A DNA stretch of 24,073 bases from positions 1 to 24,073 of IMG/VR virus record IMGVR_UViG_2681813321_000026. The stretch is one strand, 5' to 3'. Shown here piece by piece: positions 784-19,794 of the stretch. The translations under genes and the position numbers were made by a program. Each line of letters starts with the position of its first letter. The first letter of the stretch is position 1. Below the pieces are notes generated by a model. That model ran no database searches, was not told where the DNA came from, and saw nothing but the letters and a program-made list of their open reading frames with translations. This DNA comes from a virus. Its lineage: Duplodnaviria > Heunggongvirae > Uroviricota > Caudoviricetes.

Positions 784-1237
784 CGAATTTCTCCCGTGTA
801 CAGGAACAGAGTTAAAAAGCCGGAACCGGAATCAAATTACAGGATGGCCATCTGCCAGTGGCTGGTCGTAAAAAAAAGGCCACGCCATGCGCAGCCGGAA
901 ATAAAGGGATAACGATGATAGTTTGAGAAAAACAGAAACAACACTTTTGTGGCAAAGCATGGTGCCGGGTGCCTCCCGGTGAATTCAGTATCAGCACCTG
1001 AATCCGCGATTATCCCATATACCTGGTTGCTGATCGCCCCTCCGCACAGGGGGATTCACCATGCCAGTTTCTTTTAACAAACTCCCCGCAAACCAGACAA
1101 CAGTCAACCGCCTGAATTGTGAGGTATTTAAAAATTTCAACGGGTAACTGATACCCTGCTAATCGCCTGATGCTTTCTTTTTCAGCAACGGGAAAGCAAC
1201 AACCACCACACCCACCAGCCGCCCATTTACCACAAAT

Positions 1238-2035: not shown

Positions 2036-2892
2036 TATTCGCACTCACCAACCAGATTGAGAATGACCGCTGCACCGTCGTCTTCCATGCATTCACCCTT
2101 ACCACTTGCCAGAAACCAGCGGCACACCTCCACGGCTTCAGCGCGTGTCACCGGTTTGATGGTTGCCAGCAATTTTTCAAGGTAGCGCTCCCGGTCATAT
2201 ACCGATTCGTGATGCTCAGAGTAACCAAACTCATCGCCCTGTTCTTTAGTTGCAGTGTGGCGAACACTGTAGAGCCAGTCCCAGTAAACGAACTCGCGAA
2301 CAACATCAGACAGCGTATAAGGCTCAGGCAGCACATCGCGATATCCATCAACAAATGCCCGACGCTGTTCATCAATTTCGTTCATGCGGCTGCCGCCAAT
2401 GCTTCCGGCTTTTTTCTCTGCCGCAGTCCAGCCCCAGAGATGATCGTTGATAAATTTCTGGGAAGACCTGATGACCCGCTCTGCTTCCACATCTTCGAGC
2501 GCTGCTTCATAGCTACCAAACGTAGCCCTGACTGATGCCGCTTTTTTGATGTTCTCCCGGGCGTTCCTGATAACCTGCGCAGGGTTATCCATGCCGATGA
2601 TGCCGAACGCAACCTGGAAAGGTTCGTAACCATTCGCCAGCAGATAACGCGAATAGCGTTCCTGAGCCTCTTTTGGGGAAATTTTAATTTTCACCAGCGC
2701 AGCCTCAGCAGCATCCAGATGTGCGGGTTCGTTCAGACGGATAACCTCCAGCACCCAAAGATAAGCATCAGTCTGCTTATGCCCGGTGATTCTCCGTTGC
2801 TCTGGCAGGGGCTTGATGTTTGCGAGGGCGGAGCTGTACGCTGCCGTCGGGATGGTGAATAGTGCTTTATGTTCGTTATTATCAGTACGCAT
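2035..2892 (-). CDS. Hypothetical protein (285 aa) between primase and Q
   Basis: Long ORF, ATG at 2892 overlapping primase stop by 1 nt; stop overlaps Q start. No motif recognised. Confidence 0.6.
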   Translation of the reverse strand: MRTDNNEHKALFTIPTAAYSSALANIKPLPEQRRITGHKQTDAYLWVLEVIRLNEPAHLDAAEAALVKIKISPKEAQERYSRYLLANGYEPFQVAFGIIGMDNPAQVIRNARENIKKAASVRATFGSYEAALEDVEAERVIRSSQKFINDHLWGWTAAEKKAGSIGGSRMNEIDEQRRAFVDGYRDVLPEPYTLSDVVREFVYWDWLYSVRHTATKEQGDEFGYSEHHESVYDRERYLEKLLATIKPVTRAEAVEVCRWFLASGKGECMEDDGAAVILNLVGECE

Positions 2893-3860
2893 TACGCAAC
2901 CGCCTTTTTCTTATGGAAAACCAGCTCTCGAACCTGATCACCGTTCATGAGCATATTGTTGAAATCATCGTGATCCGGCCAGTACACGCTCACGCGCTGC
3001 AGGTCATTCTTTGCCATCAGATTGGCATGAGCACATTCGCAAGCCGCAGCCAGCCCGGTGGCGCTGTTCTCGTCACGGTCGGCAAAAATAATCAGGTGCA
3101 GAACACCAGCTGGTACGCGAAACTTTTTCATAAAGCCGCTGTTAATGGTTGCCCAGGTGTTCACGTTATAAATCTGGTGCGCTGACAGCGCTGTTTCGAT
3201 GCCTTCGGCGATACCCAGAGTGCTGGCGACAGGAAACATGCGGATAGCTACAGAACGAGCGTGATCCAAATAGTTATCTTCCTGCAGGGATTTGAGGCGC
3301 TTTGCACTGCTACCGATATCTGCTTTTTTATCACCATCAAGCAGAGTCTGGTGCAGATAGCACAACTCCCCTTTATCGTCCGTAGCAAGTGAATAAAGAG
3401 ACTGGAACACACTCCCGTTGTGTCTCTGCCTGGCATTGAACCGGATCGCCTCAGCAGGAAGACTGAATATTCCACGAGAATTAAGATACGCTGCGCCGGA
3501 TGTACCACGCAGTGCCTCCAGTTTTGAAAACTTGCTCAATACCCGTTTGCGTAAGCTGGTGGCGCTGCTGGTTACCGGGATTTTAACCCGTTGGTAATCA
3601 TTACCGATCAGGCGGTCTATTTCGGTACAAATCTCGTTAAATGGCTTCGCCTGTGTCAGGGTGACAAGTTTCATACCATCGCCACTACCACATACACAGA
3701 TCCACGTTCCTGCACCGTCGCGGTCGTCAATTCGGAACTTGCCACGTGCACCGCATACCGGGCATTCACCCTTGAAGTGATTTTTTCCGGTTATCGGCGG
3801 CAGACCGAAGTGCTCTAATATTTCAGGCCAGCGGCCTTTCGCTGCATCTGCTGTTTTCAT
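2892..3860 (-). CDS. DNA primase (N-terminal zinc-ribbon plus Toprim domain)
   Basis: 322-aa ORF with CPVCGARGKFRIDDRDGAGTWICVCG zinc-ribbon motif typical of phage/plasmid primases; ATG at 3860 lies 1 nt after helicase stop. Confidence 0.8.
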   Translation of the reverse strand: MKTADAAKGRWPEILEHFGLPPITGKNHFKGECPVCGARGKFRIDDRDGAGTWICVCGSGDGMKLVTLTQAKPFNEICTEIDRLIGNDYQRVKIPVTSSATSLRKRVLSKFSKLEALRGTSGAAYLNSRGIFSLPAEAIRFNARQRHNGSVFQSLYSLATDDKGELCYLHQTLLDGDKKADIGSSAKRLKSLQEDNYLDHARSVAIRMFPVASTLGIAEGIETALSAHQIYNVNTWATINSGFMKKFRVPAGVLHLIIFADRDENSATGLAAACECAHANLMAKNDLQRVSVYWPDHDDFNNMLMNGDQVRELVFHKKKAVA

Positions 3861-3861: not shown

Positions 3862-5520
3862 TTACTGACTCAGACTGTTTATATTTTTCTGGAGTTGGTG
3901 CTTTGCCTGCATGATGCGCCAGGCCTCACTGCCTGCCGGTATCTCACGTCGTTCATCACGTTCCTGAGATAAATCAATCGTTGTTTGTGCGTTTTCAGTG
4001 ACCTTCTGAACCCGCTGGTGGCCTTTGGCAAACCGGATCAGTTTGTGTCTGATGTAGTTATTTACCTCAGGGGTAATTTCCATCGGAAAGTTACTCAGTC
4101 CGTCAGGCCACTCACCGAACTTTTCCCGGAAAGTGTGAGCACACCATCCGTCACTGACTGGACGCCCCAGCGAAGCACGCTGGCGCTGATAAAATTTGAT
4201 CTGACTCCACCAGGACTGTTTCTCTGCCTTCGTCGACTGATGCTGATTTTTACCCAGCTTATTAAGTTTGCGGCTAGTGTCAGTATCAACGTCTTCACCT
4301 CGCAGCGGCTTGTGTCCACATTTCGGGCAAACATAGACGCCTGCTGGCTTCATGTAGTGGCATTGAGGGCATTCATGTGGCAGTTTTTCGGCCCGTTCCT
4401 CAACTGCCCGGCGCGCGCTTTCCTCCATGCCGTCAGACTTACCGGGAAGCTCGTCGTACTCGATTGAATCCGGATAACCCAAACGGTGCACGGTGCCGCT
4501 GTGATCGAAGATAAGGCAGGACTCTTTACCCGGTGCGGTGCGCAGCCCACGCCCGAGAGCCTGCAACCAGCGAATTTCGCTTTTTGTTGGCCTGGCGTAG
4601 ATGATGCAACGAACGTCACTATCAAAGCCGGCCACCAGAACGCCCACACTAACGATGATTTTCGTTGCACCGGTTTCAAAGCGGTGAATGATGGTCTGGC
4701 GCTCATCTACCGGAGTGTCGGCGGTCATTACCTCAGCGTTAACACCCGCCAGGTTAAACTGGATTGTCAGATAATTGGCGTGAGCTACGTTGACGCAGAA
4801 AGCGATGGTAGGTAAATCCCGACCATTCTCCAGCCAGTTCTGTACGATGTCGCCCACCAGCGTAGAGCCGCACATGATTTCAGCCAGCTGTGTTTCGTTG
4901 TAATCGCGGCCGTACTCAAGCGAAGATGTGGTTTTAACACCTTTCAGATCCGGCTTAGTTGGCGCGTAAAATTCGTATTTACTCAGATCGCCACGCTGGA
5001 TTAACTCGCCGATGGTGGTCGGCTTAATCAGTCGGTCATAGTATTTGCCCAGGAACGGAGAAAACGGAGTACCCGACAGGCCAATCACCTTTACGCCTTT
5101 GCCGCGCAGACGTTCGATATCCTTCAGGATGCGTTTTTTACGCAGGTGCGCTTCGTCGATAATCAGCAGATCGATATTTTCAGGAAAAACACGACGAATA
5201 AGCGTGTCAGCGCTGGCAATCTGAATTTTCCGGTCCGGATCGTAGTTCGGGTGATCCGCCCAGATATAACCGATTTCATCTCCAGGTAAACCATACTGCA
5301 CGAACCGATTAGCCGTCTGACCAATCAGGATGGTGTACGGAACACAGAACAGAACACGCATACCACGGCTGACAAAACCAGCAACTATGAAGGCTGCCAG
5401 ACCCGTTTTACCGCTACCTGTTGGCGAGTAAACCATGAAGGTGTCGTTTGCCTTCCAGTCACGGCGCAACATGTTTAACGCTCGTTCCTGTGCAAAATTC
5501 GGCGTGATCGTCAGCTCCAT
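3862..5520 (-). CDS. Superfamily-2 DEAH-box helicase with C-terminal zinc ribbon (replication helicase)
   Basis: 552-aa ORF; Walker A SPTGSGKTG, motif II IIDEAH, C-terminal CPQC...CPKC. SD GGGAG 7 nt upstream of ATG at 5520. Confidence 0.85.
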   Translation of the reverse strand: MELTITPNFAQERALNMLRRDWKANDTFMVYSPTGSGKTGLAAFIVAGFVSRGMRVLFCVPYTILIGQTANRFVQYGLPGDEIGYIWADHPNYDPDRKIQIASADTLIRRVFPENIDLLIIDEAHLRKKRILKDIERLRGKGVKVIGLSGTPFSPFLGKYYDRLIKPTTIGELIQRGDLSKYEFYAPTKPDLKGVKTTSSLEYGRDYNETQLAEIMCGSTLVGDIVQNWLENGRDLPTIAFCVNVAHANYLTIQFNLAGVNAEVMTADTPVDERQTIIHRFETGATKIIVSVGVLVAGFDSDVRCIIYARPTKSEIRWLQALGRGLRTAPGKESCLIFDHSGTVHRLGYPDSIEYDELPGKSDGMEESARRAVEERAEKLPHECPQCHYMKPAGVYVCPKCGHKPLRGEDVDTDTSRKLNKLGKNQHQSTKAEKQSWWSQIKFYQRQRASLGRPVSDGWCAHTFREKFGEWPDGLSNFPMEITPEVNNYIRHKLIRFAKGHQRVQKVTENAQTTIDLSQERDERREIPAGSEAWRIMQAKHQLQKNINSLSQ

Positions 5521-5793
5521 TGTGCAGCTCCCGTGCTGATGAGATAATAATTTTGTGATGTGGTTTTCATGGATTCCCCCTCACATGGCTGGTGGCCTCC
5601 CCAAAGGCTGCCAGCCTCCCTTCTGATTCAGCTCCTCTGAAAAATCACTCTTCCAGGAAGAACCCTTTTCGTTTCTCAGCGCCTGAGCGCTTTGTACTAC
5701 CTTGCTGATACGGGCGTTTTTTTAAATTGCGCCCTTAAGACAGTGATCTACTTAACCAATGGATCTCTCCTGTTGGAAAAGACCCTATTCCTG

Positions 5794-5836
5794 CCCCAAC
5801 ACCCAATCCCCCCTTACCCCCCTTACCCTCTTCCCC
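5794..5836 (-). other. C-rich (plus) / G-rich (minus) tract with six runs of 3-6 G: potential G-quadruplex motif on the minus strand
   Basis: Plus strand ccccaacacccaatccccccttaccccccttaccctcttcccc; includes tandem ccccccTTA units. Lies in the 413-bp non-coding gap between the 102-aa ORF and the helicase gene. Confidence 0.4.
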
Positions 5837-5933
5837 ATAAAAACGTACTACTTCCCTAGTACACATGAGGAGTTGGGTCAGTTGGTTGCCAACCTGAACA
5901 GGCACCTTTAAGCCTGCTTCTGTTCGGGTACCT

Positions 5934-6242
5934 TTAAACCCGAAACAGTGAGGAGCGCGATTGCGATCCAGCCAGGGGAGGTTCGGCTGTATACCCCTGT
6001 AAAGCTCTGCCCTGATTTCTTACAAACAGGCGGAGCCTTGTGTTTGCTTCGTGCCTTGCTCTGTTCTCCTTGCGGAATGAAACAGGCTCAGCGTCAAAAG
6101 TGATTTCGTATACCTCCGCATATTTCAGGGCAACCTTCCGTCTCAGTGACGGAGGCAGCCCCTGTAACTGCTGCTGAATCCACTCTTCGTCTGCCTGGCA
6201 GTACCTAGATGGCATCTCTGTCTGAACGTAATTCTGGGACAT
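5934..6242 (-). CDS. Hypothetical protein (102 aa) in the cII/replication-initiator position
   Basis: ATG at 6242 with strong SD (GGGAGGTGA); overlaps the 3' end of the cro-like gene by 38 nt in another frame. No motif recognised. Confidence 0.55.
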   Translation of the reverse strand: MSQNYVQTEMPSRYCQADEEWIQQQLQGLPPSLRRKVALKYAEVYEITFDAEPVSFRKENRARHEANTRLRLFVRNQGRALQGYTAEPPLAGSQSRSSLFRV

Positions 6243-6492
6243 ACAAGCCCTTCACCTCCCCCGTGCGCGCTAAGCTTGGATGTGGAAAAAGCTCTGATAG
6301 GTCTGGCCGAAATTCATACGCTTGGATCTTTCCGTCGACAGCTGCAACCAATAACGGCACAAATTCTGGTGAAATCTTGTTCTTGCAGTTCAACCAATCG
6401 CAGACTGTTGACTGGGCCTTTCCGCATCGCTTGGCTAAGGCTTGCTGACTTCCAAGAATCTCAATAGCTTTCTCTATGGCTTTATGTTTCAT
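6205..6492 (-). CDS. Cro-like HTH regulator (Cro/CI-type, YdaS-like), 95 aa
   Basis: Start set to ATG at 6492 (MKHKAIEKAIEILGSQQALAKRCGKAQSTVCDW, HTH) with SD AGGAGA 7 nt upstream; ORF track start at 6543 is an upstream in-frame extension. Divergent from cI. Confidence 0.75.
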   Translation of the reverse strand: MKHKAIEKAIEILGSQQALAKRCGKAQSTVCDWLNCKNKISPEFVPLLVAAVDGKIQAYEFRPDLSELFPHPSLARTGEVKGLYVPELRSDRDAI

Positions 6493-6493
6493 A

Positions 6494-6578
6494 ATCGCAT
6501 CTCCTATTGAACGCATAATAACAACAGGAAAAGCGATATTCAACGTTAAACATAGAATATTTATCGGAAAGCCGATAA
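6494..6578. promoter_or_regulatory. OR-like divergent promoter/operator region between cro-like and cI genes
   Basis: Palindromic 14-mers ATCGCatctCCtAT (6494-6507) and ATCGGaaagCCGAT (6563-6576). Candidate minus-strand cro promoter TTGAAT-N17-TATTAT (-35 at 6543..6538, -10 at 6520..6515). Candidate plus-strand -10 TAGAAT at 6553-6558 with poor -35 (PRM-like). Confidence 0.5.
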
Positions 6579-6611
6579 ACTAGCCAAGATAGAGAGGGGA
6601 GGAAAATCGCA

Positions 6612-7304
6612 ATGACATTTTCAGAACGACTTGATTTAGCTATGCGCAACGCAAAATTTACGCAAGGTAGGCTGGCCAAAGAAGTGGGTATGGCTCAGTC
6701 CAGTGTTAATCAACTACTTAACAAAGCCAACGGTTCCAGAAAAACAGTCGAAATAGCAAAAGTTTTGGGCGTTAACCCGGAATGGCTCGCATCGGGTGTT
6801 GGCCCAATGGAAATCGTGACCTCTGCAGACTCACACCAAATACGTAACATTTCTGAAGATTGGGTTACTGATTCGTATGTCGTGGATGTTTTAGACATCA
6901 GATATAGTTGCGGACCTGGTAGTTATAACTCTGATTTTCCTGATATTGTCAGATCTATAGCGATAGAACCAGGATACGCATCAAGAGTTTTTGGCGGCAG
7001 ACCAGCATCAGCAATCAAAGCAATAAACGCCCACGGCGACAGTATGAAAGGCACAATAGACCCTGAAGACTTGGTATTTGTAGATGTATCAGTTCGCACA
7101 TTTAATGGTGATGGTATATACGCCTTTACATACTCTGGAACATCGCACATCAAAAGACTTCAAAAAATCAAAGATACTCTAACGGTGATATCTGACAACC
7201 CAGCTTACAAGGATTGGGCTATCGAACCGGAAGACTTCGAACAACTTCACATTGACGGAAAAGTAATTGTCAGTTGGCCTATGACACTACACCGTTTTGC
7301 ATAA
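6612..7304 (+). CDS. cI: CI-type prophage repressor (N-terminal XRE HTH, C-terminal S24 LexA-like peptidase domain)
   Basis: 230 aa; HTH QGRLAKEVGMAQSSVNQL; S24 catalytic motifs GDSM and downstream Lys; SD GGAGG upstream of ATG. Confidence 0.9.
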   Translation: MTFSERLDLAMRNAKFTQGRLAKEVGMAQSSVNQLLNKANGSRKTVEIAKVLGVNPEWLASGVGPMEIVTSADSHQIRNISEDWVTDSYVVDVLDIRYSCGPGSYNSDFPDIVRSIAIEPGYASRVFGGRPASAIKAINAHGDSMKGTIDPEDLVFVDVSVRTFNGDGIYAFTYSGTSHIKRLQKIKDTLTVISDNPAYKDWAIEPEDFEQLHIDGKVIVSWPMTLHRFA

Positions 7305-7322
7305 GCAAAAATCATTTAACCC

Positions 7323-7348
7323 GCCCACTCTTAAGTGGGCTTTTTTTT
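7323..7348 (+). terminator. Rho-independent terminator after cI
   Basis: Perfect 7-bp stem gcccact/agtgggc with 4-nt loop ctta followed by T8. Confidence 0.8.
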
Positions 7349-7356
7349 GGGAAAAA

Positions 7357-7398
7357 ATCGATAAACCGATTGACAGGTGAAATCGGTAAACCTATTAT
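7357..7398 (+). promoter_or_regulatory. PL-like promoter with two operator sites
   Basis: TTGACA (7370-7375), 17-nt spacer, TATTAT (7393-7398). Operator-like 14-mers ATCGAtaaaCCGAT (7357-7370, overlapping -35) and ATCGGtaaaCCtAT (7382-7395, overlapping spacer/-10), same family as the OR sites. Confidence 0.7.
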
Positions 7399-7447
7399 CT
7401 TGACATAGGTATCGAACTCACCAAAGCAATTATAGAGGATGAGAAAA

Positions 7448-7858
7448 ATGTCATCGTATATGGGATTACCAACAAATCAGCACGATGCTCTTGAGAATAT
7501 TCAGCTCTTAGTAGGGACTGGTGCACTACTGTATAGCAGCAATAACCCTGAGTTAATTGAACTTGCCAGCTCCATCCTGGCTGTAACTCAAAAATATAGC
7601 CTCACCGCGTCACGTTTATGCAAACAAAATTTAGCTATTAATTCCCAGAATCGGATTCGCACCCAACGCGAAACCTGCGGCTTAACAACCGCCGAACTCG
7701 CTAGGCTGCTCGATCTCGATGAAGAAATTATCATCCAGTGGGAGAGCGGAGAGTACGAACCAACCATCAGCATGCTTATCCCTCTGGCTAATGTTCTTGG
7801 CTGTGATCCAATGTTGTTATTGACTGATGCTTATAAACAAAATCAGGAGGAAGCATAA
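7448..7858 (+). CDS. Hypothetical protein with C-terminal XRE-family HTH (first gene of PL operon)
   Basis: Start set to ATG 7448 (SD GAGGA 8 nt upstream); track start 7439 has no spacing to the SD. C-terminal HTH LTTAELARLLDLDEEIIIQWESGEYEPTISMLIPLANVLG. Confidence 0.6.
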   Translation: MSSYMGLPTNQHDALENIQLLVGTGALLYSSNNPELIELASSILAVTQKYSLTASRLCKQNLAINSQNRIRTQRETCGLTTAELARLLDLDEEIIIQWESGEYEPTISMLIPLANVLGCDPMLLLTDAYKQNQEEA

Positions 7859-7859
7859 G

Positions 7860-8051
7860 ATGAAAATGTTCAAAGGCCTTACCAACGAACCGGAGACAAC
7901 TTTTCATCACATTGCCGTACTGCTTGAAGCGGGGTTAATCATTTCGGCTTCCGGTGATGAAGAATGTGATGAACTTTCGGATGATATCTTTTTACTGGCA
8001 CAACAATACGCCAGAAGCGCATGCGATGCATTTAAGGAGCAAAGAACATGA
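7860..8051 (+). CDS. Small acidic hypothetical protein (63 aa)
   Basis: ATG 7860 preceded by AGGAGG (9-nt spacing); track ORF 7827 is an in-frame upstream extension overlapping the previous gene. Confidence 0.55.
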   Translation: MKMFKGLTNEPETTFHHIAVLLEAGLIISASGDEECDELSDDIFLLAQQYARSACDAFKEQRT

Positions 8052-8239
8052 AAACTCCATTAAATATTCTTGAGGAAGTGGCAGCACAAATAAAAGAGAA
8101 TACATCAATGCTTGAATTTATATTTAAGAATTCGCCCGACTCAGGAGAGACAGACGATTATTTATGTTGCCTCATTCGCTCCATGAATAAAACCTGTGAA
8201 ATGGCTTACGCGTATATCGACACACTGCGCAACGAATAA
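8048..8239 (+). CDS. Small acidic hypothetical protein (63 aa)
   Basis: ATG overlaps stop of previous gene (ATGA coupling). Confidence 0.55.
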   Translation: MKTPLNILEEVAAQIKENTSMLEFIFKNSPDSGETDDYLCCLIRSMNKTCEMAYAYIDTLRNE

Positions 8240-8423
8240 AGAAAACTCAATAAACAATCACCCATAAAAACATAACGGTCTCTGGTCGGGAATTTCCACA
8301 ACCTGAAAATGGTGGTGATGCATGAAAAACAGAAGTGCTTATAAAACCGCATTATTAATGGCTAATGCAGGATACTGGTCAGTTGCAATACTGTTTCTCA
8401 GGAAAGCATACGGGAAATAACAA

Positions 8424-8783
8424 ATGACACATGAACCCATTAATACATATCGTCGCCGTATAGCTGTTGCGGCACTCCATCGAATAAAACGTAAAACAGG
8501 TGGTAATCTGCTTATTGTTGACCTTCCTGATGGGAACATTACGACCATAGAAATAACTGAACAGTTTATAAACCAGTTGCTGTTACGCTTCGAAGGTATT
8601 ACCCGTGGTGAATTGGGCCGGGTGGAGGGTGAAACCGAAATCCACACTGCATACCAGAATGCTATCGGGATTAATCAACATACTGAATACCTGACTGAAA
8701 CCGGAAAGTTAATTATAGACAACCTTTTTCAAGAGATTATTGATTACGCGAAAGAAAAATATATCAGCGGAGGAATTAACTGA
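8424..8783 (+). CDS. Hypothetical protein (119 aa)
   Basis: ORF with ATG start; stop overlaps start of next gene. No motif recognised. Confidence 0.5.
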   Translation: MTHEPINTYRRRIAVAALHRIKRKTGGNLLIVDLPDGNITTIEITEQFINQLLLRFEGITRGELGRVEGETEIHTAYQNAIGINQHTEYLTETGKLIIDNLFQEIIDYAKEKYISGGIN

Positions 8784-8998
8784 TGGCTAATTTATCCCCT
8801 GTATCTGTTGTGCACGAAAAAGTGCAGATCGTTATGACAATTGAAAATGGCCAAGTCACAGGTGTCTGCAAAGTCCGCGATGGCGAGCTGATTGCCAGCA
8901 TGGATACATTCATACGGCTGGCAGAAAGAGCGGGGTATCAGATAACAGCACCTGCTCAGGAGGAAACCGGTGGCATTAACAGCAACACGCATTCCTGA
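8783..8998 (+). CDS. Hypothetical protein (71 aa)
   Basis: ATG 8783 with GGAGGA 8 nt upstream, overlapping stop of previous gene. Confidence 0.55.
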   Translation: MANLSPVSVVHEKVQIVMTIENGQVTGVCKVRDGELIASMDTFIRLAERAGYQITAPAQEETGGINSNTHS

Positions 8999-9184
8999 GC
9001 GGATCCACCGGCAGGCATTGCAGGTCCTGTTGTTGTACCGATGCCGACGGATATTTCCGCATCGGATACAGCGCACCGGATATCTCAGTCTGAAGGTTAA
9101 CCGTCGCTGGCGGCTGTTATCGAAAGACGACGGCCGGAACTGGGAAGTAATGAGTCATGAACGTTATTCGGGAGAAATAAAGAA

Positions 9185-9577
9185 ATGATCGACAACCGCA
9201 CCGCCAGCACCATTGACCAGGCATTACAGAAACATGATACACCCGTCGGCCCGTTATTTTTTGTAACACGCCACGGAAGAACAAAAAAATGCCTCACCCG
9301 AAAAACGGCAATTCGTTACCTGGCATTCTTTATGACCACCCGCGCTTTTGAACGTTCAGGATTCCGACAACGCTATCCTGACAAGCGTTTTATCTTCAAC
9401 AGGAATGAGATATGGAAACGTGGAGAATCAACCACAGAGTATACCCGCGCACACCAGCGAACAATCAGACGACTGCGCAGACTCATCGCCAGGAAACAGT
9501 ATACAGAAAAATGGTTCAGAAAATATGACACATGGAGCGCCGGATATTACGAACTGATGGCAACAAAACCATTCTGA
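9185..9577 (+). CDS. Hypothetical basic protein (130 aa, Arg/Lys-rich C-terminus)
   Basis: ATG 9185 with GGGAGA upstream. No motif recognised. Confidence 0.5.
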   Translation: MIDNRTASTIDQALQKHDTPVGPLFFVTRHGRTKKCLTRKTAIRYLAFFMTTRAFERSGFRQRYPDKRFIFNRNEIWKRGESTTEYTRAHQRTIRRLRRLIARKQYTEKWFRKYDTWSAGYYELMATKPF

Positions 9578-9637
9578 CGTAAACGAAATTAACCATGACG
9601 CAATTAAATAAGGCAAGCCGAATACATCAGGAGGACC

Positions 9638-9826
9638 ATGAACATTTATTTCAGAATAGTTATATCACTGGCAATTATCACATGTATTTACGGATTAATC
9701 GTTCCGGCCCTCATATCAATGAAGGATACGGTAGCAGTGATTTCTGGCTTTGCTCTGGCGTGTCTGACCCCGCCCTGCATTTATGCCATTTATAAGGGTC
9801 TTTCTTTTTCTAAGGATAAAAGATGA
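9638..9826 (+). CDS. Small membrane protein (62 aa, two predicted TM helices)
   Basis: AGGAGGA upstream of ATG; two hydrophobic stretches; stop overlaps start of SPFH gene (ATGA). Confidence 0.55.
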   Translation: MNIYFRIVISLAIITCIYGLIVPALISMKDTVAVISGFALACLTPPCIYAIYKGLSFSKDKR

Positions 9827-10137
9827 AAAAATTACTTTTTGCTTTAGCCCTTGTTCTGCCGACCATTGGCCTTGTCGGTTGCGATCGCGTTGAGCCTGGT
9901 AATGTGGGCATCAAAGTAAACAAACTGGGCGACGATAAAGGCGTCGGTGAAGTGGTCGGTGTTGGGCGCTACTGGACGGGATGGAACACTGAGGTTTACA
10001 TCTTCCCGACCTTTAAGCAGATGAAGACCTACGATGATCCATTCAGTTTCCAGATGAGTGACGGTACAACCATCGGCTATCACATCGGCGTGGCCTACAA
10101 AGTTGATCCATCCAAAGTTACCACAGTCTTTCAGACC

Positions 10138-10167
<30 letters not shown>
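9823..10167 (+). pseudogene. Truncated copy of SPFH/band-7 lipoprotein gene (first 105 codons, then unrelated sequence after repeat boundary at 10137)
   Basis: Identical to the first 105 codons of the 275-aa gene at 19791-20618, then diverges and terminates after 9 foreign codons. Confidence 0.75.
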
Positions 10168-13550
<3,383 letters not shown>

Positions 13551-13576
<26 letters not shown>

Positions 13577-14096
13577 TCAGCAACCCCGGTATCAGTTCAT
13601 CCAGCGCGGCTGCTTTGTTCATGGCTTTGATGATATCCCGTTTCAGGAAATCAACATGTCGGTTTTCCAGTTCCGGAAAACGCCGCTGCACCGACAGGGG
13701 GAGCCCGTCGAGAATACTGGCAATTTCACCTGCGATCCGCGACAACACGAAAGTACAGAATGCGGTTTCCACCACTTCAGCGGAGTCTCTGGCATTCTTC
13801 AGTTCCTGTGCGTCGGCCTGCGCACGCGTAAGTCGATGGCGTTCGTACTCAATAGTTCCTGGCTGGAGATCTGCCTCGCTGGCCTGCCGCAGTTCTTCAA
13901 CCTCCCGGCGCAGCTTTTCGTTCTCAATTTCAGCATCCCTTTCGGCATACCATTTTATGACGGCGGCAGAGTCATAAAGCACCTCATTACCCTTGCCACC
14001 GCCTCGCAGAACGGGCATTCCCTGTTCCTGCCAGTTCTGAATGGTACGGATACTCGCACCGAAAATGTCAGCCAGCTGCTTTTTGTTGACTTCCAT
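13551..14096 (-). CDS. nu1: Terminase small subunit (lambda Nu1, 181 aa)
   Basis: Translation MEVNKKQLADIFGASIRTIQNWQEQGMPVLRGGGKGNEVLYDSAAVIKWYAERDAE... recognised as lambda Nu1; overlaps A start as in lambda. Confidence 0.95.
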
Positions 14097-14283
14097 TGTT
14101 CATTCCACGGCCAAAAACAGAGAAAGGAAACGACAAAGGCCCAAAAGTTCGTTTTCAGCACCTGTCGTTTCCTTTCTTTTCAGGGGGTATTTTAAATAAA
14201 AACATTAAGTTACGACGAAGAAGAACGGAAACGCCTTAAACCGGAAAATTTTCATAAATAGCGAAAACCCGCGAGGTCGCCGC

Positions 14284-14295
14284 CCCGTAGCCTGC
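14284..14295 (-). other. cosN cohesive-end site (12-nt GGGCGGCGACCT on minus strand); cosB lies between here and Nu1
   Basis: Plus strand aggtcgccgccc at 14284-14295 is the reverse complement of the lambda left cohesive end; the following 190 bp toward Nu1 matches the lambda left end from memory with a few substitutions. Confidence 0.85.
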
Positions 14296-14522
14296 CGGAT
14301 CGCCGGAAAGGACCCAATAAATGATAATAATTATCATTTATATAAATACCATCACACATCCCACGTACACCATAAAACCACGACAAATAATCAATTTTGT
14401 CCAAGTCATGCATTAATTGATCTGTGTCAACTTAACGTAAAGACATCTTAAGACAATACAAATCAGCAGCACTGAACACGGAAAAACACAATGTCATCAA
14501 AAAATAAAGCTTCCCAAACCAG

Positions 14523-14663
14523 ATGATTAATCAAATCCATATTGCCCTTGAACGTAAGGGATCGGGTAATTTTTCGGCATGGGTTATTGAAGCCTGCAGG
14601 AGAAGGCTGGCAACAGATGCAAAGCACCTGCGCCCGGCCAGCATGAAAAATAACGAGAAATGA
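14523..14663 (+). CDS. Small hypothetical protein (46 aa) in the cos-proximal right-end region
   Basis: ORF MINQIHIALERKGSGNFSAWVIEACRRRL...; resembles from memory the last small ORF before cos in lambda. An upstream ATG at 14491 is out of frame. Below track size cutoff. Confidence 0.3.
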   Translation: MINQIHIALERKGSGNFSAWVIEACRRRLATDAKHLRPASMKNNEK

Positions 14664-14795
14664 ACGTTCGGTTACAGGAACCGGTAGCTACTGTCTTCTA
14701 ACAATATTTCATCTTCATATCCGGCGAAACAAGACTTTACCCTGCAGGGATGTACTGAATAGCAACAGAGTGATAATTAACTTCTGATAAAATAA

Positions 14796-15122
14796 TCAGG
14801 GTGCTGAAGGACTAAAGATAAATGTTTTCTTCACGCCTTTACGCGGCTTGTCCTTCTCAAATCGCCATTTTGCCATCGCCTTTACAACCTGCTCATCAAA
14901 CAGATGGTGCGGCTCTGAACGGATAAACTCAATTCGGGTGACAGTACCATCAGCACCAATATCAAACTTCACATCAACCCGTCCCTTTATATAATTTGCC
15001 GCGGCATAGGCCGGATATTGTGGTAATGCCTTAACCAACTGTCGAGGCATATCTGTTTTATGTTGCGTACAGCCCATAACCAAAGAAGACAACAAAATAA
15101 TTAACGGAAGATTTCTTTTCAT
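14796..15122 (-). CDS. Lipoprotein consisting of a TonB C-terminal-like domain (about 108 aa)
   Basis: Signal peptide MKRNLPLIILLSSLVMGC with lipobox-like VMGC; mature region PQYPAYAAANYIKGRVDVKFDIGADGTVTRIEFIRSEPHHLFDEQVVKAMAKWRFEKDKP aligns closely with E. coli TonB C-terminal domain (PQYPARAQALRIEGQVKVKFDV...AMRRWRYEPGKP) from memory. Alternative upstream ATG at 15137 has no SD. Confidence 0.75.
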   Translation of the reverse strand: MKRNLPLIILLSSLVMGCTQHKTDMPRQLVKALPQYPAYAAANYIKGRVDVKFDIGADGTVTRIEFIRSEPHHLFDEQVVKAMAKWRFEKDKPRKGVKKTFIFSPSAP

Positions 15123-15138
15123 TTTTATTCCCGGCATA

Positions 15139-15158
15139 GATAAGAATAAGTCTTATTC
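15139..15158. promoter_or_regulatory. AT-rich perfect palindrome (GAATAAG-T-CTTATTC preceded by GATAA) overlapping the putative promoter of the TonB-like gene
   Basis: 7-1-7 perfect inverted repeat at 15144-15158; overlaps a minus-strand TAGAAT -10-like hexamer; partial resemblance to Fur-box GATAAT hexamers. Confidence 0.3.
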
Positions 15159-15761
15159 TAACAATGCAGCCCTGTCGGTCATCAATCCTCTGCTTAATGG
15201 CAATGACAATTATCCGACTTAAATCACAAATCAGACACATGACATAACAGAGTTTGCGAGGTAACACATCGTCCGGTTTCTTCCACCATCGCACCGGACC
15301 AGCGACCATGAGGGGACAACGCCGCGCTCCGTTTACGCGGTAAACCCCGGTGTGTATCGTTTTTGATTATCCCCGCACACTCTCGCAGAGGAGTCTCCCT
15401 GTCGGGCTGCGGTCTCTGTTAATGCAGGAATACGGCGACAATACCGCGCATGGATAATAAGGTCGCTCAACACACTGGCTGTAATTCAGCGGATACCATT
15501 CGGCATTTATCAGTATTCATCACACACTCAACGGTGAATTCTTCATGCGTGGCATTCACTTCATATGTTCGTGAATAACATTCAGTGCATTTACCTCTGA
15601 ACACCTCTTCAATCACTCTTCCAGGAAGAACCCTTTTCGTTTCTCAGCGCCTGAGCGCTTTGTACTACCTTGCTGATACGGGCGTTTTTTTAAATTGCGC
15701 CCTTAAGACAGTGATCTACTTAACCAATGGATCTCTCCTGTTGGAAAAGACCCTATTCCTG

Positions 15762-15804
15762 CCCCAACACCCAATCCCCCCTTACCCCCCTTACCCTCTT
15801 CCCC
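15762..15804 (-). other. Second copy of the C-rich/G-rich potential G-quadruplex tract
   Basis: Identical to 5794-5836. Confidence 0.4.
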
Positions 15805-15901
15805 ATAAAAACGTACTACTTCCCTAGTACACATGAGGAGTTGGGTCAGTTGGTTGCCAACCTGAACAGGCACCTTTAAGCCTGCTTCTGTTCGGGTACC
15901 T

Positions 15902-16210
15902 TTAAACCCGAAACAGTGAGGAGCGCGATTGCGATCCAGCCAGGGGAGGTTCGGCTGTATACCCCTGTAAAGCTCTGCCCTGATTTCTTACAAACAGGCG
16001 GAGCCTTGTGTTTGCTTCGTGCCTTGCTCTGTTCTCCTTGCGGAATGAAACAGGCTCAGCGTCAAAAGTGATTTCGTATACCTCCGCATATTTCAGGGCA
16101 ACCTTCCGTCTCAGTGACGGAGGCAGCCCCTGTAACTGCTGCTGAATCCACTCTTCGTCTGCCTGGCAGTACCTAGATGGCATCTCTGTCTGAACGTAAT
16201 TCTGGGACAT
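15902..16210 (-). CDS. Hypothetical protein (102 aa), copy 2
   Basis: Identical to 5934-6242. Confidence 0.55.
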   Translation of the reverse strand: MSQNYVQTEMPSRYCQADEEWIQQQLQGLPPSLRRKVALKYAEVYEITFDAEPVSFRKENRARHEANTRLRLFVRNQGRALQGYTAEPPLAGSQSRSSLFRV

Positions 16211-16460
16211 ACAAGCCCTTCACCTCCCCCGTGCGCGCTAAGCTTGGATGTGGAAAAAGCTCTGATAGGTCTGGCCGAAATTCATACGCTTGGATCTTTC
16301 CGTCGACAGCTGCAACCAATAACGGCACAAATTCTGGTGAAATCTTGTTCTTGCAGTTCAACCAATCGCAGACTGTTGACTGGGCCTTTCCGCATCGCTT
16401 GGCTAAGGCTTGCTGACTTCCAAGAATCTCAATAGCTTTCTCTATGGCTTTATGTTTCAT
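16173..16460 (-). CDS. Cro-like HTH regulator, copy 2
   Basis: Identical to 6205-6492. Confidence 0.75.
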   Translation of the reverse strand: MKHKAIEKAIEILGSQQALAKRCGKAQSTVCDWLNCKNKISPEFVPLLVAAVDGKIQAYEFRPDLSELFPHPSLARTGEVKGLYVPELRSDRDAI

Positions 16461-16461
16461 A

Positions 16462-16546
16462 ATCGCATCTCCTATTGAACGCATAATAACAACAGGAAAA
16501 GCGATATTCAACGTTAAACATAGAATATTTATCGGAAAGCCGATAA
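16462..16546. promoter_or_regulatory. OR-like promoter/operator region, copy 2
   Basis: Identical to 6494-6578. Confidence 0.5.
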
Positions 16547-16579
16547 ACTAGCCAAGATAGAGAGGGGAGGAAAATCGCA

Positions 16580-17272
16580 ATGACATTTTCAGAACGACTT
16601 GATTTAGCTATGCGCAACGCAAAATTTACGCAAGGTAGGCTGGCCAAAGAAGTGGGTATGGCTCAGTCCAGTGTTAATCAACTACTTAACAAAGCCAACG
16701 GTTCCAGAAAAACAGTCGAAATAGCAAAAGTTTTGGGCGTTAACCCGGAATGGCTCGCATCGGGTGTTGGCCCAATGGAAATCGTGACCTCTGCAGACTC
16801 ACACCAAATACGTAACATTTCTGAAGATTGGGTTACTGATTCGTATGTCGTGGATGTTTTAGACATCAGATATAGTTGCGGACCTGGTAGTTATAACTCT
16901 GATTTTCCTGATATTGTCAGATCTATAGCGATAGAACCAGGATACGCATCAAGAGTTTTTGGCGGCAGACCAGCATCAGCAATCAAAGCAATAAACGCCC
17001 ACGGCGACAGTATGAAAGGCACAATAGACCCTGAAGACTTGGTATTTGTAGATGTATCAGTTCGCACATTTAATGGTGATGGTATATACGCCTTTACATA
17101 CTCTGGAACATCGCACATCAAAAGACTTCAAAAAATCAAAGATACTCTAACGGTGATATCTGACAACCCAGCTTACAAGGATTGGGCTATCGAACCGGAA
17201 GACTTCGAACAACTTCACATTGACGGAAAAGTAATTGTCAGTTGGCCTATGACACTACACCGTTTTGCATAA
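16580..17272 (+). CDS. cI: CI-type prophage repressor, copy 2
   Basis: Identical to 6612-7304. Confidence 0.9.
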   Translation: MTFSERLDLAMRNAKFTQGRLAKEVGMAQSSVNQLLNKANGSRKTVEIAKVLGVNPEWLASGVGPMEIVTSADSHQIRNISEDWVTDSYVVDVLDIRYSCGPGSYNSDFPDIVRSIAIEPGYASRVFGGRPASAIKAINAHGDSMKGTIDPEDLVFVDVSVRTFNGDGIYAFTYSGTSHIKRLQKIKDTLTVISDNPAYKDWAIEPEDFEQLHIDGKVIVSWPMTLHRFA

Positions 17273-17290
17273 GCAAAAATCATTTAACCC

Positions 17291-17316
17291 GCCCACTCTT
17301 AAGTGGGCTTTTTTTT
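17291..17316 (+). terminator. Rho-independent terminator after cI, copy 2
   Basis: Identical to 7323-7348. Confidence 0.8.
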
Positions 17317-17324
17317 GGGAAAAA

Positions 17325-17366
17325 ATCGATAAACCGATTGACAGGTGAAATCGGTAAACCTATTAT
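17325..17366 (+). promoter_or_regulatory. PL-like promoter with operators, copy 2
   Basis: Identical to 7357-7398. Confidence 0.7.
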
Positions 17367-17415
17367 CTTGACATAGGTATCGAACTCACCAAAGCAATTA
17401 TAGAGGATGAGAAAA

Positions 17416-17826
17416 ATGTCATCGTATATGGGATTACCAACAAATCAGCACGATGCTCTTGAGAATATTCAGCTCTTAGTAGGGACTGGTGCACTACTGT
17501 ATAGCAGCAATAACCCTGAGTTAATTGAACTTGCCAGCTCCATCCTGGCTGTAACTCAAAAATATAGCCTCACCGCGTCACGTTTATGCAAACAAAATTT
17601 AGCTATTAATTCCCAGAATCGGATTCGCACCCAACGCGAAACCTGCGGCTTAACAACCGCCGAACTCGCTAGGCTGCTCGATCTCGATGAAGAAATTATC
17701 ATCCAGTGGGAGAGCGGAGAGTACGAACCAACCATCAGCATGCTTATCCCTCTGGCTAATGTTCTTGGCTGTGATCCAATGTTGTTATTGACTGATGCTT
17801 ATAAACAAAATCAGGAGGAAGCATAA
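17416..17826 (+). CDS. Hypothetical protein with C-terminal XRE HTH, copy 2
   Basis: Identical to 7448-7858. Confidence 0.6.
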   Translation: MSSYMGLPTNQHDALENIQLLVGTGALLYSSNNPELIELASSILAVTQKYSLTASRLCKQNLAINSQNRIRTQRETCGLTTAELARLLDLDEEIIIQWESGEYEPTISMLIPLANVLGCDPMLLLTDAYKQNQEEA

Positions 17827-17827
17827 G

Positions 17828-18019
17828 ATGAAAATGTTCAAAGGCCTTACCAACGAACCGGAGACAACTTTTCATCACATTGCCGTACTGCTTGAAGCGG
17901 GGTTAATCATTTCGGCTTCCGGTGATGAAGAATGTGATGAACTTTCGGATGATATCTTTTTACTGGCACAACAATACGCCAGAAGCGCATGCGATGCATT
18001 TAAGGAGCAAAGAACATGA
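17828..18019 (+). CDS. Small acidic hypothetical protein (63 aa), copy 2
   Basis: Identical to 7860-8051. Confidence 0.55.
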   Translation: MKMFKGLTNEPETTFHHIAVLLEAGLIISASGDEECDELSDDIFLLAQQYARSACDAFKEQRT

Positions 18020-18207
18020 AAACTCCATTAAATATTCTTGAGGAAGTGGCAGCACAAATAAAAGAGAATACATCAATGCTTGAATTTATATTTAAGAATT
18101 CGCCCGACTCAGGAGAGACAGACGATTATTTATGTTGCCTCATTCGCTCCATGAATAAAACCTGTGAAATGGCTTACGCGTATATCGACACACTGCGCAA
18201 CGAATAA
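18016..18207 (+). CDS. Small acidic hypothetical protein (63 aa), copy 2
   Basis: Identical to 8048-8239. Confidence 0.55.
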   Translation: MKTPLNILEEVAAQIKENTSMLEFIFKNSPDSGETDDYLCCLIRSMNKTCEMAYAYIDTLRNE

Positions 18208-18391
18208 AGAAAACTCAATAAACAATCACCCATAAAAACATAACGGTCTCTGGTCGGGAATTTCCACAACCTGAAAATGGTGGTGATGCATGAAAAACAG
18301 AAGTGCTTATAAAACCGCATTATTAATGGCTAATGCAGGATACTGGTCAGTTGCAATACTGTTTCTCAGGAAAGCATACGGGAAATAACAA

Positions 18392-18751
18392 ATGACACAT
18401 GAACCCATTAATACATATCGTCGCCGTATAGCTGTTGCGGCACTCCATCGAATAAAACGTAAAACAGGTGGTAATCTGCTTATTGTTGACCTTCCTGATG
18501 GGAACATTACGACCATAGAAATAACTGAACAGTTTATAAACCAGTTGCTGTTACGCTTCGAAGGTATTACCCGTGGTGAATTGGGCCGGGTGGAGGGTGA
18601 AACCGAAATCCACACTGCATACCAGAATGCTATCGGGATTAATCAACATACTGAATACCTGACTGAAACCGGAAAGTTAATTATAGACAACCTTTTTCAA
18701 GAGATTATTGATTACGCGAAAGAAAAATATATCAGCGGAGGAATTAACTGA
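18392..18751 (+). CDS. Hypothetical protein (119 aa), copy 2
   Basis: Identical to 8424-8783. Confidence 0.5.
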   Translation: MTHEPINTYRRRIAVAALHRIKRKTGGNLLIVDLPDGNITTIEITEQFINQLLLRFEGITRGELGRVEGETEIHTAYQNAIGINQHTEYLTETGKLIIDNLFQEIIDYAKEKYISGGIN

Positions 18752-18966
18752 TGGCTAATTTATCCCCTGTATCTGTTGTGCACGAAAAAGTGCAGATCGT
18801 TATGACAATTGAAAATGGCCAAGTCACAGGTGTCTGCAAAGTCCGCGATGGCGAGCTGATTGCCAGCATGGATACATTCATACGGCTGGCAGAAAGAGCG
18901 GGGTATCAGATAACAGCACCTGCTCAGGAGGAAACCGGTGGCATTAACAGCAACACGCATTCCTGA
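18751..18966 (+). CDS. Hypothetical protein (71 aa), copy 2
   Basis: Identical to 8783-8998. Confidence 0.55.
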   Translation: MANLSPVSVVHEKVQIVMTIENGQVTGVCKVRDGELIASMDTFIRLAERAGYQITAPAQEETGGINSNTHS

Positions 18967-19152
18967 GCGGATCCACCGGCAGGCATTGCAGGTCCTGTTG
19001 TTGTACCGATGCCGACGGATATTTCCGCATCGGATACAGCGCACCGGATATCTCAGTCTGAAGGTTAACCGTCGCTGGCGGCTGTTATCGAAAGACGACG
19101 GCCGGAACTGGGAAGTAATGAGTCATGAACGTTATTCGGGAGAAATAAAGAA

Positions 19153-19545: not shown

Positions 19546-19605
19546 CGTAAACGAAATTAACCATGACGCAATTAAATAAGGCAAGCCGAATACATCAGGA
19601 GGACC

Positions 19606-19794
19606 ATGAACATTTATTTCAGAATAGTTATATCACTGGCAATTATCACATGTATTTACGGATTAATCGTTCCGGCCCTCATATCAATGAAGGATACGGT
19701 AGCAGTGATTTCTGGCTTTGCTCTGGCGTGTCTGACCCCGCCCTGCATTTATGCCATTTATAAGGGTCTTTCTTTTTCTAAGGATAAAAGATGA
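19606..19794 (+). CDS. Small two-TM membrane protein (62 aa), copy 2
   Basis: Identical to 9638-9826. Confidence 0.55.
   Translation: MNIYFRIVISLAIITCIYGLIVPALISMKDTVAVISGFALACLTPPCIYAIYKGLSFSKDKR

Follow-up and report, generated by a model that had tools for sequence, protein, structure and literature searches.

ColE1 RNA II and the T4 origins oriF and oriG depend on a structured transcript and a persistent hybrid via G-rich RNA, with no origin-binding initiator. In the T4 system, the superfamily 2 (SF2) helicase UvsW acts on R-loops, and the origins use a middle-mode promoter and an unwinding element, not G-runs. T7 early-gene RNase III sites have no G tracts after them and no conserved-loop hairpins before them. 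G-runs on the non-template strand give co-transcriptional R-loops and DNA:RNA hybrid G-quadruplexes (G4s), and in mitochondria such a hybrid G4, made up of the displaced strand together with the nascent RNA, stops transcription and leaves a replication primer (PMC3488243, PMC4176368). Here, we describe a conserved non-coding element at positions 5643-5942 (minus strand) of a 24,073-nucleotide (nt) stretch of Caudoviricetes DNA (IMG/VR record IMGVR_UViG_2681813321_000026, positions 1 to 24,073), which we call the window and which is part of a lambdoid prophage of E. coli, of the Fels-1, ENT39118, and Fostie kind. We propose, with a probability of roughly 0.35, that the element may be a transcription-coupled R-loop/G4 priming or entry site for phage replication.

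The gap between the phrog_852 gene and the SF2 helicase gene of the window has two parts, a helicase expression cassette (5511-5642) and the element, which belongs to a replication module made up of phrog_852, the element itself, a RadD-like helicase, and a primase. As in ColE1 and at T4 oriF, the element lies upstream of or among replication functions, and the helicase is weakly similar to UvsW and strongly to RadD. The element differs from ColE1 in having no antisense RNA I-like promoter in the gap, and it shares no sequence similarity with the ColE1 or T4 origins. Its likeness to the T7 RNase III sites is one of architecture only, namely an intercistronic hairpin (5825-5878) that is long, imperfect, and interrupted by internal loops. 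By mechanism, the element would be a variant of R-loop/G4 priming sites or of structured phage leaders. An element of ~300 nt that folds on one strand, is conserved at least as well as the neighboring enzymes, and has no Rfam entry offers a handle on how this module starts replication.

The sense strand carries a G tract that resembles mitochondrial CSB II

The G tract of the element, GGGG AAGA GGG TAA GGGGGG TAA GGGGGG ATT GGG TGTT GGGG, lies on the minus strand at 5794-5835. Its six runs appear on the plus strand as C-runs at 5794-5797, 5802-5804, 5808-5813, 5817-5822, 5826-5828, and 5832-5835, and its core consists of the two G6 runs at 5808-5813 and 5817-5822, within 2.3 tandem copies of the unit CCCCCCTTA (5808-5828). 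A previous description made from the letters alone (the sequence-only reading) had noted these G-runs, several palindromes, and a 19-codon open reading frame (ORF), and we find all of them where it had placed them, except that the tract ends at 5835 and not at 5836. With six runs, the tract at 5794-5835 is a canonical G4 motif (at least four runs of at least three G, with loops of 1-7 nt) and, besides its own second copy, the only one on either strand of the 24-kb window. Its G4Hunter score is 2.2-2.4 (2.2 over 45 nt) compared to a maximum of 1.2 elsewhere in the window, and 0 of 5000 shuffles of the region reached 2.2.

Among 97 distinct relatives, 96 have two runs of at least four G that are 1-3 nt apart, and 78 have a canonical four-run motif. 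The G-runs are never found on the antisense strand, and at all loci the G-rich strand is the sense (non-template) strand of both flanking genes. A promoter-like site lies upstream of the tract at 6543-6515 (minus strand). Since the G-runs are non-template and downstream of a promoter, they have the orientation of R-loop and hybrid G4 sequences, which supports a priming site. By itself, the tract gives no Watson-Crick fold, and in local folding a G4 is predicted to be favored in its 121-nt context.

These features recall mitochondrial CSB II (the second of the conserved sequence blocks), which likewise has two long non-template G-runs downstream of a promoter, in a non-coding control region by replication functions. 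The core 15-mer of the phage tract, CCCCCCTTACCCCCC, is identical to the vertebrate mitochondrial CSB-2 of gecko and frog (PMC6295329), and, as in human CSB 2, the length of the G-runs varies between close relatives (G6 to G9 in the phages; PMC5027508). We read the identity with CSB-2 as a functional analogy between low-complexity motifs, with no homology implied. CSB II differs in that its polymerase is T7-like, whereas here it would be the bacterial RNA polymerase, and the phage tract sits within a larger structured element, along with conserved hairpins. Near-identical relatives (L003, L028, L029, L065, and others) show run lengths from G5 to G9 at 5808-5822.

Under the proposed model, the element would be transcribed from the rightward early promoter and would form a replication start site requiring no initiator protein. 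Transcription over the C-rich template would yield a G-rich RNA that stays annealed as an R-loop, stabilized by a G4 to which the displaced G-rich strand contributes or which it forms itself. This R-loop would supply both a primer and an opened duplex, where the SF2 helicase and the primase could assemble a fork, with phrog_852 perhaps guiding their assembly, while the upstream hairpins may shape the transcript so that the G-runs are freed at the right moment. What the sequences show is the element's anatomy, conservation, strand specificity, and linkage to the module; R-loop formation, priming, and any protein binding we infer. That helicases of this class work on branched or R-loop substrates supports the model. 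A fuller version, in which a lambdoid family of Enterobacterales prophages replicates without an initiator protein by means of a CSB II-like G6-N3-G6 tract in a pre-primer RNA, with an R-loop or hybrid G4 used by the RadD-like helicase and the Toprim primase and with phrog_852 as cofactor, is put forward as a tentative and somewhat doubtful extension.

If the R-loop/G4 model is true, the element would be the first G4-type priming site known from a temperate phage of enterobacteria. CSB II-type priming could then be studied in a genetically tractable system, and RadD-like phage helicases would gain a function. On the fuller version, a bacterial virus would have its own counterpart of the priming of the mitochondrial heavy strand, with a defined replication role for the RadD-type helicase family.

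Base pairs of the sense strand are kept through compensatory change

The whole 431-nt minus-strand RNA folds at z = -3.2. At its start, a segment of two hairpins (also z = -3.2) holds H1a at 5925-5942, CGGGU-UUAAAGGU-ACCCG, with an invariant 8-nt loop, and H1b at 5897-5918, GCAGGC-UUAAAGGU-GCCUGU, with the same loop again and with covariation at the closing positions. The loop of H1a contains the phrog_852 stop codon. Hairpins with this TTAAAGGT loop occur once or twice per locus, and in the window the loop motif is found only in the gap and its duplicate. The stems, examined in 56 distinct instances, pair by Watson-Crick or wobble pairs with 38 G·U versus 4 A·C pairs, and the closing pairs across relatives are CG, GU, AU, GC, and UA. 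Since this asymmetry between G·U and A·C is unlike that of a duplex site, it argues for a sense-strand element and not a duplex protein site.

A long hairpin, P1ext (5825-5878, minus strand), follows, with a GTAC-N10-GTAC palindrome at its apex (5845-5862) and with lower stems in which the initial portion of the purine/G tract pairs with a pyrimidine-rich 5' arm. Folding predicts this hairpin in nearly all subtypes (mean z of -2.5 over 97 variants), and its arms are wholly different between subtypes yet still pair: CCUCAU/AUGGGG, UCUCAUUG/CAAUGAGA, CUCGUUUGUUUUUG/CAAAAAUAAACGAG, and UCUUUUUUC/GGGAGAAGG. An arm-swap test yielded -18.0 kcal/mol for the native arms against -14.7 kcal/mol for swapped ones; the native mean was reached in 0 of 10,000 permutations. 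In type A, 86% of the P1ext cells are paired versus 44-56% in slid controls. Unrelated small hairpins replace the GTAC sequence at the same place in Atlantibacter and Serratia.

These results come from folding each sequence separately and from the permutation test, used in place of an RNAalifold consensus. On a plain MAFFT alignment of 41 representatives, RNAalifold gave a weak consensus of -18 kcal/mol and recovered only H1, because subtypes are misaligned in the variable arms. A covariation count within type A alone is uninformative, as the 3' arm never varies there. Thus, H1 and P1ext are conserved, strand-specific structures whose base pairs are kept through compensatory change, and compensatory pairing was not seen in the rest of the element. 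The sequence-only reading, which had described a structured non-coding region, had listed neither these TTAAAGGT hairpins (5925-5942 and 5897-5918), nor the hairpin at 5825-5878, nor the GTAC-N10-GTAC/GTAT palindromes at 5845-5862 and 5694-5711; its general description stands, in that the gap is non-coding, structured, and conserved. Together, these findings point to an element that works as a single-stranded nucleic acid of the sense strand. That the hairpins are specific to that strand is what one would expect of a pre-primer RNA or of a displaced strand, and not of a protein site in duplex form.

The remainder of the element, all on the minus strand, is a mixture of invariant and replaceable parts. 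The blocks CUUUUCCAACAG and CAUUGGUUAAGUAG (5748-5781) are the top-conserved columns of alignments A1 and A2 and recur, slightly altered, in Pantoea, Yersinia, Serratia, Kosakonia, and Atlantibacter. No consistent hairpin was found around these blocks, and folding gave no consistent helix for the segment around CAUAGGUUAGGUAG. Two GATC (Dam) sites, at 5745-5748 and 5762-5765, flank the invariant GGTTAAGTAG block, and other subtypes have GTAC…GTAC or AGATCTCGATCT at the GATC positions. At 5712-5734 lies a variable GC hairpin with an A-rich run, GGGCG-CAAUUUAAAAAAA-CGCCC, which becomes GGGCA..UGCCC in Fels-1 and GGGG-GAUA-CCCC in phi467; a hairpin with an A-run recurs at this position although the sequence differs between subtypes. 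A second GTAC-type palindrome, GUAUCAGCAAGGUAGUAC (5694-5711; repeat family D2), lies 151 nt from the first and is present in most subtypes, with an unrelated hairpin in its place in Atlantibacter.

The palindromes of the sequence-only reading fare differently across relatives. While cttccaggaag (5650-5660) is kept outside the closest relatives, agcgc-ctga-gcgct (5678-5691) and ggttgccaacc (5884-5894) are specific to the window's subtype, and gggcg/cgccc (5712-5716 and 5730-5734) is kept as a position, not as a sequence.

The same structures could belong to a cis-acting mRNA leader that acts post-transcriptionally, on the stability, processing, or translation of the helicase/primase message, which we regard as the main rival explanation, possible if rather doubtful. 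P1ext could then be an RNase III-type site, the UUAAAGGU hairpins could be operators for a phage protein such as phrog_852, and the G-runs could be Shine-Dalgarno (SD)-like or form a G4, modulating the access of ribosomes or RNases. Sense-strand-specific hairpins with abundant G·U, co-varying P1ext arms, and a phrog_852 stop codon within a hairpin loop would all suit such a leader, as would the invariant ENRARHEAN-RLR block of phrog_852 (an arginine-rich helix), and the adjacent upstream-ORF cassette indicates translational tuning of the helicase. The element is not set apart from its flanking genes by any promoter or terminator and is therefore probably in one mRNA with them, which also favors a leader. 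However, the top-conserved parts (the G-runs, CUUUUCCAACAG, and CAUAGGUUAGGUAG) lack consistent pairing and are near-invariant across genera, which is unusual for a phage-specific operator able to co-evolve with its protein. Moreover, short subtypes have the helicase SD sequence ~20 nt past the element with no obvious sequestering helix, and a leader leaves unexplained the RepL-like initiator that replaces the element in distant relatives. If the element is a regulatory leader, phages would have a further, new structured RNA, one that likely has a protein partner.

The element is inherited with a replication module

A pattern search with two conserved blocks gave 118 viral contigs, and a helicase profile search gave 33 genome loci across Enterobacterales. 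The element was found in ~150 phage or prophage loci of this order and, at loci with enough flank (~118 viral contigs and 27 genomes), it always lies between a phrog_852 homologue and this clade of helicases. The module is common in prophages of E. coli, Salmonella (Fels-1), Citrobacter, Enterobacter, Yersinia, Serratia, Pantoea, and others. The gap region is 88-92% identical among phages of E. coli, Yersinia, and Cronobacter and Enterobacter/Salmonella 'plasmids', and 87 of 5426 complete E. coli genomes contain it.

Across loci, identity ranges from 62 to 100% for the phrog_852 homologue, from 64 to 100% for the helicase, and from 27 to 100% for cI and cro. With the exception of one Budvicia locus, every helicase of at least 71% identity comes with the element, including those of Pantoea, Yersinia, Serratia, Kosakonia, and Atlantibacter. 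Mean nucleotide identity to the window is 82% from the G tract to GGTTARGTAG, 79% for the helicase 5' end, 71% for phrog_852, and 68% for the hairpin region. The gap had been taken to lie between the immunity genes and the replication operon, which needs to be revised, as the gene upstream of it (5934-6242) co-inherits with the helicase and primase while cI and cro are freely swapped.

That upstream gene encodes phrog_852 (102 aa, minus strand; PHROG 852 match, 3.7e-41) and is the first gene of the replication module, to which the family is restricted. All 467 protein clusters of the family are named 'hypothetical', and phrog_852 has no Pfam match and no PDB sequence match; an AlphaFold2 model reached a pLDDT of 56, too poor for use. 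Its ENRARHEAN-RLR block is invariant, and we take this arginine-rich block to resemble, loosely, the RNA-binding motifs of N proteins. From its position the protein had been named 'cII-like', a name that we dropped since it has no helix-turn-helix (HTH) domain and no CII family match. A different upstream ORF of Providencia and Morganella looks CII-like, presumably by likeness to lambda CII.

The SF2 helicase (3862-5520, minus strand; ResIII/DEAD with a Zn ribbon) has E. coli RadD as its nearest solved structure (6jde, 3.4e-20), with weaker similarity to UvsW, and is not of the hexameric, DnaB-type replicative ring class. The primase (2892-3860, minus strand) was assigned by family matches to Zn_Ribbon_Prim, DUF7146, and Toprim_3.

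Morganella, Providencia, and one Atlantibacter locus have helicase homologues of 63-65% identity but lack the element. These relatives have a phrog_852 homologue (48% identity, E = 2e-26), which in Morganella and Providencia stands in the same module, and a 144-aa winged-helix gene abuts the helicase start. The winged-helix protein of Morganella locus L154 matches the RepL family of replication initiators (PF05732, 25.9 bits versus a Pfam cut-off of 20.3). We found no homology above shuffles between the element and the spacer of these RepL-type relatives. The Fostie module, on the other side, consists of phrog_852, the element, helicase, and primase only, with no initiator-like gene. Since a RepL-like gene replaces the element, and since the family of the window has no initiator-like gene, the element thus appears to occupy the place of an 'initiator plus its sites' in the window's module.

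The winged-helix genes lie at L154, L155, L159 (2561-2995), L156 (2519-3004), and L153 (403-918). By inspection, those of L155 and L159 are evident homologues, that of L156 is more divergent, and that of L153 (Budvicia) is a guess. Ahead of the gene, L154, L155, L156, and L159 have inverted repeats of the form CGACA-N5-TGTCG and a purine block, AAGGAYAAGGAGAGGG, that is conserved.

Signals of classical origins, antitermination, and separate genes

The sequence-only reading had suggested an origin of replication among several candidate roles. This role is the best supported of those proposed, but not in the form of a classical double-stranded origin of the lambda ori or plasmid iteron type, with the GTAC palindromes or the TTAAAGGT boxes as protein sites. 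The element resembles such origins in being a cis element next to replication genes, and the two GTAC palindromes 151 bp apart, the two TTAAAGGT boxes 26 bp apart, a modest AT-rich dip with an A7 run (5690-5780), and the two GATC sites would fit. However, the gap has no iterons (at least three direct repeats of ~17-22 bp), with no repeat family above two copies. Its DnaA boxes are at chance, neither enriched nor clustered, and it has no strongly AT-rich block, the lowest GC content being 0.38 over 60 nt. The TTAAAGGT stems co-vary by G·T and not by A·C, unlike a duplex site, and Atlantibacter and Serratia replace the GTAC palindromes by unrelated hairpins. The module also differs from lambda ori and iteron origins in lacking an initiator gene, and the pairing is strand-specific. 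We therefore consider a classical origin to be extremely improbable.

The gap had also been placed at the nutR/tR1 position of lambdoid phages, and an attenuator or antiterminator site that is a functional analogue of tR1/nutR would be another, though unlikely, reading. In this case, the weak hairpin at 5844-5863 with its U-run, GUUUUUAU, or a G4 or hybrid-G4 roadblock, would limit read-through into the replication genes and Q and delay the late genes, and the conserved-loop hairpins would recruit a factor that relieves the block. The map position in the rightward early operon, between early regulators and the replication genes plus Q, is similar to that of lambda nutR/tR1, and the invariant-loop transcript hairpins recall boxB, although by resemblance only. 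In type A, an AU-rich stem-loop is followed by U5 (5844-5863, then GUUUUUAU), and non-template G tracts attenuate transcription in other systems (PMC4176368).

On the other hand, the U-run is absent in other subtypes, no consensus terminator was found on the minus strand of the gap, and a conserved, tR1-like intrinsic terminator with a GC-rich stem and a U-run is lacking. The sole terminator-like site in the gap is weak, on the plus strand (5899-5916), and not conserved in relatives. No boxA (CGCTCTTA-like, with one mismatch allowed) occurs on the minus strand of 5521-5942. None of the hairpins inspected, which have 8-nt UUAAAGGU or 13-nt A-rich loops, is a lambda-type boxB, with its 5-bp GC stem and GAAAA-type pentaloop, no boxB pattern search having been run. 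No nutL-like second copy of any motif was found in the window outside the gap and its duplicate, nor is there a second site downstream of the leftward promoter. An N gene was not seen: phrog_852 has no match to N-like families, and N was not searched among all ORFs. No strong terminator that would need antitermination was found between the gap and Q. Furthermore, the element co-inherits with the replication genes and not with the immunity region, where nut sites belong. The nutR/tR1 assignment is thus not borne out.

We also considered a separate gene, for a small protein or for an independently transcribed small RNA (sRNA) of one strand or the other. In favor are the conservation and structure of the region, the frequent presence of an ATG or GTG just upstream of the G tract, and the C-rich antisense strand, which would make a good Rho-loading or sRNA-like sequence. 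However, a sigma-70 scan found no promoter-like site on either strand of the gap, and the only terminator-like site is the weak, unconserved one on the plus strand. The element has no Rfam match; the sole hit up to E = 10 was spurious, to a eukaryotic long non-coding RNA model, and there were no gathering-score matches to the element in the window and five related loci. One-base indels in the G- and T-runs of close relatives shift every frame, the peptides that could be encoded are not constant in length or sequence among subtypes, and the wobble pairs of the hairpins exclude the antisense strand. A separate gene is therefore very unlikely.

Evidence that weighs against a priming site

Several observations count against the R-loop/G4 priming site that we favor. 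Fels-1-type relatives have two G-runs only (GGGGAGGGGG) and no canonical four-run motif. In the full-length leader fold the predicted G4 is neutral, with no gain in energy, and P1ext is predicted to tie up part of the purine tract. Because G-richness does not continue downstream of the G tract, a long R-loop is not predicted. A defective prophage retains the element without the helicase or primase, and the linkage to the neighboring genes may be mere adjacency. All of the structural evidence fits an mRNA leader equally well. Finally, a literature search on Fels-1 replication and on the literal motifs returned nothing on these phages, the element, or the origin of the module.

A recurrent module junction at 5643

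The element ends in a conserved UUCUUCCUGGAAGAGUGAUU (5643-5662, minus strand), where the exact 4495-bp repeat of the window also starts (at 5643). In alignment A2, CTGGAAGAG is invariant. Across loci, the distance from the core of the element to the helicase ATG takes discrete values: ~154 nt in short subtypes, ~260 nt in the window's subtype, 516-590 nt with an inserted 122-aa ORF (ORF122, phrog_1347), as in Fels-1 and phi467, and ~800 nt with an inserted HNH/NUMOD4 homing endonuclease (L043). All of these differences in spacer length start directly after the conserved UUCYUGGAAGAGUGA (window 5643-5662). Depending on the locus, CTGGAAGAGUGA is followed by the helicase start or upstream-ORF cassette, ORF122, the HNH endonuclease, or a foreign late-region fragment. 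Position 5643 is therefore a recurrent module junction where homing-endonuclease genes insert, in agreement with the sequence-only reading, which had suggested a recombination hotspot. The junction is a defined hot spot, both for the insertion of homing-endonuclease genes and for the exchange of modules, and is useful in annotating mosaic prophages.

It could be argued that the whole element is a recombination or homing target and nothing else, conserved for no other reason than that mobile endonuclease genes use it as their recognition site and flank and that modules are exchanged at it. That ORF122, the HNH/NUMOD4 gene, the upstream-ORF cassette, and the late-region fragment all join right after CTGGAAGAGUGA, where the window's repeat also starts, is in line with this. 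However, it covers only ~20 nt (5643-5662) and leaves 280 nt of strand-specific structure and invariant blocks unexplained, and most loci have no endonuclease gene. We consider that there is little chance that this explanation accounts for the element.

The endonuclease of L043 (3214-3867, minus strand) is a free-standing, 218-aa, I-HmuI-like homing endonuclease with NUMOD4 and HNH_3 domains, located in the spacer. ORF122 (L005, 2630-2998, minus strand; also in Fels-1, phi467, and many contigs) has no Pfam match, and its codons 9-16 contain the conserved CTCCTGGAAGAG. The idea that 5643-5700 is a relic of the 5' end of ORF122 was given up, since short subtypes conserve CTGGAAGAG in its own right.

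The helicase expression cassette

On the other side of the junction, the cassette carries a 19-codon upstream ORF, MKTTSQNYYLISTGAAQWS (5570-5511, minus strand), with the SD sequence GAGGGGG at 5576-5582. As the sequence-only reading had described, its stop overlaps the helicase start, lying 7 nt past the helicase ATG (5520-5518). The overlap is also present in Fostie, ENT39118, Fels-1, and phi467, while YP3 has an early stop, L102 has an in-frame fusion, and the short subtypes lack the cassette. The SD sequence and the stop/start overlap point to a coupling of helicase translation to that of the upstream ORF. Further upstream lies a GC hairpin, GGCUGG..CCAGCC (5587-5616, minus strand; -19.4 kcal/mol), found only in subtypes A and B, in which the palindrome ggctgccagcc (5606-5616) is part of this larger structure; its pairing is maintained through changes in ENT39118 and Pseudescherichia. 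A Chi site (5588-5595, plus strand) lies inside the hairpin and is lost in ENT39118.

Gene order, repeat, and other features of the window

On the minus strand, the order of genes is a cro-like gene, phrog_852, the gap, the SF2 helicase, the Toprim primase, a 285-aa protein (2035-2892), and Q (1643-2044). The cro-like YdaS/HTH gene is at ~6205-6543 (minus strand), and a cI-like repressor is encoded on the plus strand (6612-7304). After cI come a strong terminator (GCCCACTCTTAAGTGGGC followed by T8; 7323-7340, plus strand) and a near-consensus promoter, TTGACA-17-TATTAT (7370-7398, plus strand), which precedes an HTH_3 gene (7439-7858). This arrangement is PL-like, with a first gene that is HTH_3 and not N-like. 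A close relative, H10, has a P27-type terminase.

The 4495-bp direct repeat is exact (5643-10137 = 15611-20105) and contains phrog_852, cro, cI, and the early-left genes, together with an identical second copy of the element (15611-15910, minus strand). This second copy adjoins a lambda-like late-region fragment rather than the helicase, joined to it via GAAGAG microhomology. Between the copies of the repeat lies a lambda-like portal/terminase/Nu1/cos/bor segment, and the portal ORF (9844-11451) is apparently truncated at ~438 aa and then reads on into repeat DNA. The whole arrangement is contiguous in 0 of 5426 complete E. coli genomes. IMG/VR contig L059 equals 10139-19472 at 99.98% and diverges at 10138; since it matches across the 15610/15611 junction, that junction exists elsewhere. 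Tandem or recombined prophages are possible sources of the arrangement, as is an assembly artifact.

Seven Chi sites (GCTGGTGG) are present in the window, at 1212, 3555, 4014, 4854, 5588, 20751, and 22372, compared to 0.8 expected from shuffles. Downstream of Q, in the leader region of the late operon, an Rfam match to the STnc100 sRNA (921-1093, minus strand; 108 bits, gathering score 47) lies between strong terminators at 1261-1244 and 896-878.

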